Of a stretch of DNA of 64,000 nt, positions 60,301 through 63,300 are shown piece by piece. A program made the position numbers. Within the stretch, counting starts at the first letter, position 1; every line of letters begins with the position of its first letter. The stretch comes from Escherichia coli (GTDB lineage Bacteria > Pseudomonadota > Gammaproteobacteria > Enterobacterales > Enterobacteriaceae): assembly GCF_041886205.1 (NCBI RefSeq), contig NZ_CP169029.1, one strand, 5' to 3'.

Positions 60301-63300
60301 GGCAAGACGGGTTTTATCTTTGGAAGAACCTTGAGATTCAGCACGGTTGCCTTTGAAGTCATATTCCCACTGACCGAAACCAGTCAGTTGATCGTTGATT
60401 TGGGTTTCACCTTTAAAGCCCAGACGAGCATAAGTAGTGTCACCATCATCTGCATCGTTAGAGGAGAAGTAGTGCTTAGCATTAACTTTTCCGTACAGAT
60501 CCAGTTTGTTACCGTCTTTGTTATAGATTTCTGCAGCTTGAGCAGACACTGCCATCAGAACAGATGCTGCAACCACAGAAAGTGCCACTGTAATTTTTTT
60601 CATTTTTTTTGCCTTTAAAGTTGAACTTTTCAATAGAAAAGAAGTCACTCCGAATAAATATCTATAATTTTTGTATTTAAGTTTCAAGTTTTGCACATTA
60701 GTATTGAGATATTTTTGTGATTAAAATCACAAAAATATCACCATAAAACCAATGGATTATTAGAAAAGAATTAATTCAGTGAATAACAACTCGAGTAGGC
60801 AGCTTGGCGCTACGACTTATCATGGTCTGTAATTACCTTTATAAAACAAACAATGTTATTGCTTTCAGTTGGTTATATGGCACGTTCAGCTCAACCCCGT
60901 AAACACAAACCATCTCCACAGAGAAGTCAACTTCCCCACTATGTCGCAAAACTTCACGAAGATGATTTTTTGACGAAGAAGAGACCGAAGTGCATCGCTT
61001 TGATAATTTTGATGGTGCGGTGGCGTATTACACAAACCTGAATATTTCGTTCTTTGTGGATACCGGAAACAAAAAGTGGGTCTTCTGGTTTGTCCGTGTC
61101 GATGACGAGGGTTATCTAGAGACAACCTGATGTGAGGAGCGGTAATTCTCGACTATTCTTGCAGCTATCACTGCCAGTGGCATGTGCAGCCCAAACAGCG
61201 GTACGGTTCACTGACCGGACAGTGTAACCCCGATATTCAGAGACTTCCCCGTTTTGCCGATATTTTTCAGCAGGGGATCCGCTGGATTAACTGGTTGAAT
61301 AAACAGCCAGAAGCTTCTGTGTGTCCGGTGATGATTGCGTATTCCGCTCTATTCGATCACGGATTGGCATCAAAGTCCGATCAGCGATTCGCATCCATTC
61401 GATTAACCGAAAACTTAACTTTTTCTATCGCTTTTCAACTCGTTTTTTCGGTGTTTTCCATTGACGGGGGATTTTTCCTCAGGGACTCTCCCTGAAGGAC
61501 CAGTCTGTGTGAGTTATGTACCAGTCTGTCCAAGATGGCATATGCTGTTGTTGGGTTCACTATAAGAACATACCATTTATCTACCGGGAACTGGCTTACC
61601 GCTATTGTGCTACCTTGCCCGTAACGATCTTCTGTGATCGCCAGGAGGTCATGACACTGGGAATTACTTAACTGTTTAACTATTTAAGCCCCAGATCGTC
61701 TAGGATTAGAACCTGTATTTTTCTGTTTCAGATATTTTAGCCAGCTACCATCAACACGTCCCTGAGCCCGCTGTTCCAGTAACCGCCCGGTTCTACAGTA
61801 CCGGACGCTGTGTTTCTGTCGACATACCTGTTCGCCCGGCACATTGGCTATCCAGCTATTGCCGCATCCTGTAGGCTCCGTTATCAGCAGGTTTTTCTTG
61901 TGGATTATGTAATGACCGTTCAGCAGTTCCCTCATCTATTCAGCTCCCAGGCCTCTTGAAGCCGGATAACGCAGTCCTTCCGCTGTTACCTGATATTTCA
62001 GGCCGGTATTTTCTCTCAACTGTACCACTCGACTAGTTTCCCTGCTCAGGAGTTCGTCATCAACCAGCAGCGTCAGTCTCTCCTAGAGCGACAGTTCGCC
62101 GTCGGTCCGGAGGGGGGGCCAGCTGTCGTATCAGGCTCCCAGCTAGATAATATTTTTATTCTATCCTAGCGTGACCACCCGTTTTTTCTGCCCGCGCAAT
62201 TGCCAATCCGTACTGATTTTGAGATGAAGATGGATATCCACTTCATCTTGATGCTCTGTGCTGCATTCGTCCAGTGCTTTATGGATTGCTTTCTGCATCA
62301 GGCATCGTGCGTCACGGGAAATTGGTGCTATGACAGGCAATTGCTCAGTCCGGTTGGTGATTTGTTTTAATTTGGCGATTGATCAGATCGCACAATTCGG
62401 GCTAAGCTCCCTCAAAGGGAGCTACTATTCTGCGCAACTATATAGTATAGTACCAGCCGACGAGGGATATTTAAGGCAAGTTAACATTGTAACCAGAGCT
62501 GTATGGAGAAACTGTTGTCCCACTCTCCCCAGATATGTGCACGACGAAGGCCAGCACTAAGAAAAATAACATGTTGTCGGCGAATATACTCTATCAAAGA
62601 TTATTCTCCTCATCCTGAAAAATAAGGTTTTGTAGCGCCTTTGATAACATCAATTACCTGAACTTTTTATGCCCTTCTATTCTTATTTTATGCATTTTCA
62701 TTACCGAGTTTGGAACATCTGAAATATCACCTGATACTACTTTTTCTTTTGCCTTAACAATTTCATTATTTAGTTTCATTAGCTCATTTTTATACTCACC
62801 CCCACCTTTCTTATCATCATGGGAAATCTTTTCAGGAAGTGATTTCATTGAGTCATTAACAGCGAGCTCCATAATTTCAAGAGCATCAATCATCTCTTTT
62901 TTATTCGTTGACGACTGTAAAATACCAATATTATCAGCGAGTATCTGCATATTTTCACCAAGCTCTTTTGCAGAAGATATATTTCCACCCCCAAAATATA
63001 ATAATAAGGTACTACAAATTGTTAAACATTTTACTTTTTCCATATTCTATCCTTACAGGGGGAGACTCCCCCTGTGATATATTATTTTTTAGATAAATCA
63101 AATCGGTCATTATTCATGACTTTATTCCAAGCATTAGCAAAATCATGAATAAACTTATCTTGAGCATCATCTGACGCGTAAACTTCAGCTACAGCCCGTA
63201 ATTCAGGATTTGAACTGAATATTAAATCTACAGAGGAAGCTTTCCATTTAAGAGTACCGCTCTTACGGTCATATCCATTATAGACATCCTCATCTTTATC

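Follow-up and report, generated by a model that had tools for sequence, protein, structure and literature searches.

Genomic context of the remnant

The DNA analyzed here (the window) is a stretch of 64,000 nucleotides from Escherichia coli contig NZ_CP169029.1. Within it, the gap between an OmpC-family porin gene and a cytochrome b562 gene is occupied by a 1.7-kb stack of three abutting insertion sequence (IS) remnants, which are IS91-like, IS21-like and IS630-like, with the IS21-like piece in the middle. A catalase-peroxidase gene comes after the cytochrome b562 gene. The features of the locus are listed below with the evidence for each.

59515..60603 (/60696), minus strand: OmpC-family porin gene, left neighbor, outside the remnant (Pfam Porin_1, E = 2.2e-156; ompC in PGAP)
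60774..61329, plus strand: IS91-like 5' remnant, a frameshifted orf121 with stops and the first ~31 transposase codons (blastn, tblastn)
61330..62146, minus strand: IS21-family (ISSso4-like) 3' remnant, truncated istB and right element end (blastn against ISSso4)
61330..61434, minus strand: right terminal region (IRR; internal repeats of the CGATCACGGATTGGCAT / CGATCAGCGATTCGCAT type), with the TG end at ~61330 (alignment to the ISSso4 right end)
61435..62146, minus strand: istB pseudogene, from ~codon 17 to the stop codon (tblastn and codon alignment)
61684..61935, minus strand: 83-aa ORF, IstB aa 87-157, with degenerate Walker A EPTGCGNS (ORF list, Pfam, codon table)
62147..62445, minus strand: IS630-like remnant, one terminal repeat and transposase codons 1-25 fused to 163-~212, then cut off at the IS21-like junction (blastn, tblastn)
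62654..63043, minus strand: cytochrome b562 gene, right neighbor, outside the remnant (Pfam Cytochrom_B562, E = 7.2e-15; cytochrome b562 in PGAP)

The two outer pieces are unrelated to IS21 and share 79% (IS91) and 84-91% (IS630) identity with their reference elements, from which both differ by truncation and by stops, frameshifts or an internal deletion of ~420 bp. On the left, window 60774-61340 aligns by blastn with the first ~575 bp of IS91 (L004 2501-3075, 79% identity), and tblastn over 60774-61329 matched IS91 orf121 (E = 5e-35) and TnpA aa 2-31 (80% identity). The IS91 homology stops where the IS21-like terminus starts. On the right, two separate parts of IS630 were recovered by blastn against the L003 copy, at 91% identity over 62274-62446 and 84% over 62139-62290. 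The terminal repeat of this piece is GCGCAACTATATAG, followed by TA, and its IS630 counterpart is GCGCAGCTATTTAG; the internal deletion of ~420 bp is fused at a repeated KAIHK motif. A further IS630 transposase match across 61963-62146 was discarded as a low-identity tblastn extension into IstB-coding sequence. Megablast against the plasmid collection gave no match for 62446-62653, the ~208 bp that separate the IS630-like end from the stop codon of b562.

Identity and extent of the IS21-family remnant

An intact IS21-type element carries istA, encoding a DDE transposase, followed by istB, between terminal repeats. IstB, a helper ATPase of the AAA+ class, handles the target DNA and brings in IstA. 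Two minus-strand ORFs in the middle remnant score above the curated cut-off of 24.1 bits for the Pfam family IstB_IS21 (PF01695). One is the 83-aa ORF at 61684-61935 (E = 1.1e-08, 35.3 bits, profile positions 81-150), which contains NLLITEPTGCGNSWIAN...HSVRYCRTGRLLEQ and is the short minus-strand ORF on which the initial annotation had based its proposal of an IstB remnant between the porin and cytochrome genes. The other is a 41-aa ORF at 61435-61560 (E = 1.7e-05, 24.9 bits, profile positions 207-233), which contains NPTTAYAILDRLVHNSHRLVLQGESLRK and represents the C-terminal end of the family.

Comparison with ISSso4 confirmed that proposal. The reference was an intact copy on an Escherichia marmotae plasmid (L001), with an istA of 512 aa including the stop and an istB of 251 aa. 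By tblastn, aa 29-250 of ISSso4 IstB align to window 62109..61441 in frame -2 with 73% identity (E = 5e-107). The initial annotation had also noted IstB-like sequence upstream of the 83-aa ORF in another frame. This holds for aa 17-28 only (62146..62111, frame -1), a 12-aa match that is weak alone (tblastn, E = 5.4) and is credible because the DNA alignment continues through that stretch; aa 29-86 lie in the same frame as the ORF, behind a TAG stop.

At the DNA level, window 61326-62143 aligns with L001 4956-5768 at 86.9% identity over 823 columns (blastn). A megablast search with 60700-62650 as the query matched ~61332-62143 to hundreds of plasmid and chromosomal ISSso4 copies at 87-88% identity, and the matched gene is annotated as "IS21-like element ISSso4 family helper ATPase IstB". 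Over istB and the right terminal region, the window copy is collinear with ISSso4; in both, istB points the same way with respect to the end, and the terminus is of one type (TG...GCGTATTCCGCTCTATTCGATCACGGATTGGCAT). The alignment passes the istB stop codon (61435-61437) and runs ~105 bp further to the right terminus, matching the ISSso4 right end almost base for base over 61330-61434. In the reference, this terminus was set at L001 4959 (TGTGACTGCGT...) by comparing both ends of the L001 copy, each of which starts TGTGA(G)CTG(A)CGT and has repeated CGATCA..GATTTGGCAT motifs. The counterpart in the window is TGATGATTGCGT at 61330, and the right end includes repeated CGATCA..GATT.GCAT motifs in addition to the terminal TG. 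The left end is absent, so only one side of the family's inverted-repeat pair is seen, and no pair of flanks is left to compare for a short direct target-site duplication.

In the other direction, the ISSso4 homology ends at 62143-62146, inside istB codon ~17, and what remains is therefore a fragment and not an element. It retains the 3' third of an IS21-family element, from istB ~codon 17 to the stop codon, together with the right terminal repeat region. The extent given in the initial annotation, 61500-62250, is thus offset on both sides from the true span of 61330-62146, and 62147-62250 belongs to the IS630-like remnant. The tblastn search of 60.7-62.6 kb with IS21-family IstA and IstB that had been suggested for this locus recovered the IstB match and no IstA match. 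The absence of a tblastn match to ISSso4 IstA extends over 60.7-64 kb, and istA remains sought to the right of 62146 are absent, the IS630-like remnant lying there instead. We conclude, with a probability of about 95%, that an IS21-family insertion sequence, a close relative of ISSso4, left window 61330-62146 on the minus strand as an inert fossil; no observation speaks against this identification.

The remnant shares the IstB_IS21 domain with the IS21 family (IS21, IS100, IS1326 and IS5376, which pair an IstA DDE transposase with an IstB AAA+ helper), and its 3' helper gene lies, as in the family, beside a terminal repeat region with internal repeats. Unlike these elements, it has no transposase gene and only one end; istB is present as a pseudogene and istA is missing. 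Compared with ISSso4, the left end, istA and istB codons 1-16 are gone, what is left of istB is interrupted by two stops and three frameshifting indels, and its Walker A motif is destroyed. No new kind of element is present.

Elsewhere in the window, the only IstA match is a segment of 55 aa at 56700-56864 (plus strand), 36% identical to the N-terminal helix-turn-helix (HTH) of an IS21-family IstA (E = 1e-06). It falls within a gene that PGAP names IS66-like accessory protein TnpA, and the likeness is probably due to shared HTH ancestry and not to another IS21 remnant.

Decay of istB

The istB copy is dead and cannot make IstB. Global alignment to the ISSso4 istB coding sequence located five disabling lesions within ~710 bp: a +1 insertion in a run of G at codon 29 (~62110), in-frame stops at codon 37 (GAG to TAG) and codon 86 (CAG to TAG), a -5 deletion at codon 158 (~61722) and a +8 insertion at codon 171 (~61687). 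The -5 and +8 indels jointly restore the frame, and the C-terminal third of istB is consequently back in the frame of the 83-aa ORF. The degenerate P-loop reported in the initial annotation corresponds to the change of Walker A from GPTGCGKS to EPTGCGNS (G106E, K112N). Between the -5 and +8 indels, the codons for Walker B (LILDD) are out of frame, and no single open frame of the remnant contains both Walker A (GxxGxGKS/T) and Walker B (hhhhDD/E) in intact form. The description of the element as decayed is accordingly borne out by the two nonsense codons, the three frameshifting indels, the Walker A substitutions and the loss of istA and the left end.

Transposition of IS21-family elements requires IstA, both ends and an ATP-competent IstB. 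The remnant cannot transpose because it makes no IstB, has no transposase and retains one end only; from the needs of the family we infer that it is completely immobile.

Over 205 comparable codons, the istB remnant differs from ISSso4 istB by dS = 0.285 and dN = 0.086 (dN/dS = 0.30). This ratio is above the usual level for two functional transposition genes and far below 1, and may reflect divergence that took place partly under selection, in a sister lineage of ISSso4, and partly neutrally after inactivation.

Distribution and existing annotation

Over 60700-62650, the window and the E. coli JML285 chromosome (NZ_AP024114.1) are 100% identical. The decayed istB copy was found in one of 5,426 complete E. 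coli genomes, and no other genome in this set covered at least 80% of 60700-62650. No second ISSso4-like copy was found on the JML285 chromosome. Candidate occurrences of the same remnant in other genomes and plasmids were rejected: matches of at least 99% identity comprised only 33 nt of the terminal repeat (61336-61368), which are 100% identical in many plasmids. An insertion site shared with the E. marmotae plasmid, where IS91 orf121 also lies beside ISSso4, was rejected as well, the IS there being ~400 bp further along.

The RefSeq (PGAP) annotation of JML285 has three features here, given in window coordinates:

61235-61336: partial hypothetical, corresponding to the IS91 TnpA N-terminus
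61435-61935: pseudogene "ATP-binding protein; internal stop"
62164-62289: "IS630 family transposase" fragment

The pseudogene status was thus already known, being marked in that annotation. The gain is one of naming, as the RefSeq "ATP-binding protein" pseudogene can now be called an IstB (ISSso4-like) remnant. Literature on ISSso4 yielded passing mentions only.

Alternative interpretations

A replication helper of the DnaC type, from a phage or plasmid, is an alternative to an insertion sequence as the source, since DnaC and IstB are relatives within the AAA+ proteins and RefSeq gives no more than the name "ATP-binding protein". We consider this origin to have almost no likelihood, given that the Pfam assignment is IstB_IS21 and that the 87% DNA identity to ISSso4 istB continues past the stop through an IS21-type terminal repeat to the element terminus. 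Scarcely more probable is that the 83-aa ORF encodes a small IstB-derived protein that has been domesticated or still functions. The ORF is open, has an ATG start, and aligns over 70 residues with the IstB AAA+ core; yet its Walker A lysine and glycine are gone (K112N, G106E), the -5 indel puts the Walker B segment that follows it out of frame, and the ORF is simply the stretch from a TAG stop to a frameshift inside a longer pseudogene. Its presence in one of 5,426 complete genomes indicates no conservation, and PGAP also calls it a pseudogene.

The source of the IS21-family fossil is more evenly balanced, and the question refines the main explanation and does not compete with it. A plain ISSso4 copy would be expected to show more than 87-88% identity, and a sister IS may therefore have been the parent. 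We see about an even chance that the fragment is no decayed ISSso4 copy but comes from a separate, uncatalogued sister IS of the IS21 family, with inactivation a relatively recent event. The identity to every ISSso4 copy peaks at 87-88% in two large collections, and a dN/dS of 0.30, well below 1, suggests that much of the divergence arose under purifying selection while both lineages were functional. Against this, the E. coli and plasmid collections hold no intact closer relative, and five disabling lesions in ~710 bp together with replaced catalytic residues imply substantial time as a pseudogene. We advance a little more tentatively the fuller statement that the fragment comes from an uncatalogued sister (~87% DNA identity) with no intact copy in either set searched (5,426 complete E. 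coli genomes and 72,556 plasmids). If descent from such a sister is true, nothing but this fragment would be left of an IS, extinct or foreign, that came along with the island.

Junctions and proposed history

The IS21-like piece is bounded on each side by a junction within a short microhomology between the two parent sequences (62133-62146 and 61326-61340). At the IS630/IS21 joint (62133-62146), the sequence CTCC(C)GGCCA, of ~10 bp, is common to IS630 and istB: the parents read GGCTCCCGGCCA|TCGCC (ISSso4) and GCGCTCCGGCCA|GATAAT (IS630), and the window reads GGCTCCCAGCTA|GATAAT. This is microhomology between two internal points, and the joint therefore reflects deletion or illegitimate recombination and not transposition. 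At the IS91/IS21 joint (61326-61340), GGTG(G)TGACTG is common to IS91 and the ISSso4 terminus, and the boundary is ambiguous by ~10-15 bp because IS91 CCGGTGGTGACTG resembles the ISSso4 terminus TGTGACTG. This joint could be a true insertion in IS91 tnpA codon ~31, or else a microhomology recombination joint. Taken together, the microhomologies point to illegitimate recombination or deletion, and not to clean transposition, as the probable origin of the present arrangement.

The anatomy of the junctions suggests the following order of events. An IS91-like element would first have taken up an ISSso4-like insertion in its transposase gene, a step we infer from the intact IS21-like right terminus that abuts IS91 tnpA codon ~31. 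Deletion or illegitimate recombination at CTCC(C)GGCCA may then have joined an internal point of the IS630-like element to istB codon ~17, which would have removed the first part of istB together with istA and the left end. Point decay would have come last, the remaining istB acquiring its two TAG stops and its +1, -5 and +8 indels and losing the Walker A glycine and lysine.

Flanking modules and comparison with JML285

About 140 E. coli genomes carry the porin module (59334-60763) at 93% identity, and its homology ends at 60763, ~10 bp short of the IS91-like piece. In the one genome inspected (L005), the module sits among IS3, IS1 and IS5 copies, beside an integrase gene and plasmid stbA genes, and the porin appears to be mobile cargo. 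Across the stack, the b562/catalase-peroxidase pair (62654-64000, minus strand) has ~74% DNA identity to a plasmid katP/cytochrome b562 pair found in 34 plasmids. The pair is a divergent chromosomal version of the plasmid katP/b562 two-gene module.

The IS stack lies between modules that are found elsewhere or are plasmid-related, and it therefore marks a seam between independently mobile modules. This agrees with the initial annotation, which had read the remnant as an older IS layer and a possible former mosaic junction: it is the middle of three IS remnants that separate the porin and b562/catalase-peroxidase modules. For reconstruction of the island, the stack of three IS fragments marks where the mobile porin module meets the b562/catalase-peroxidase module. 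The remnant itself is non-functional, ordinary genomic debris of little biological weight, and its sole significance is as the scar where separately acquired modules joined.

Upstream of the porin gene lies a near-perfect 32-bp palindrome (60708-60739, GATATTTTTGTGATTAAAATCACAAAAATATC), the core of which, TGTGA-N6-TCACA (60716-60731), fits the CRP-site consensus. An Rfam scan of 60600-62700 gave sub-threshold matches to microRNA families only, on both strands of the palindrome (60702-60745); these were rejected as chance matches.

The window is distinct from JML285: it lacks 4.6 kb that JML285 carries between two ISCro1 3' ends, and elsewhere the two are 99.5-99.8% identical. The JML285-only segment encodes an OmpA-family protein, a YadA-family autotransporter adhesin and a group II intron maturase fragment. 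Its breakpoint is a stretch of 219 bp common to two ISCro1 (IS66 family) sequences, one an intact copy and the other a 3' fragment (window 59072-59290 against L002 5554-5772 and 10373-10591). The difference is consistent with homologous recombination between the ISCro1 stretches.
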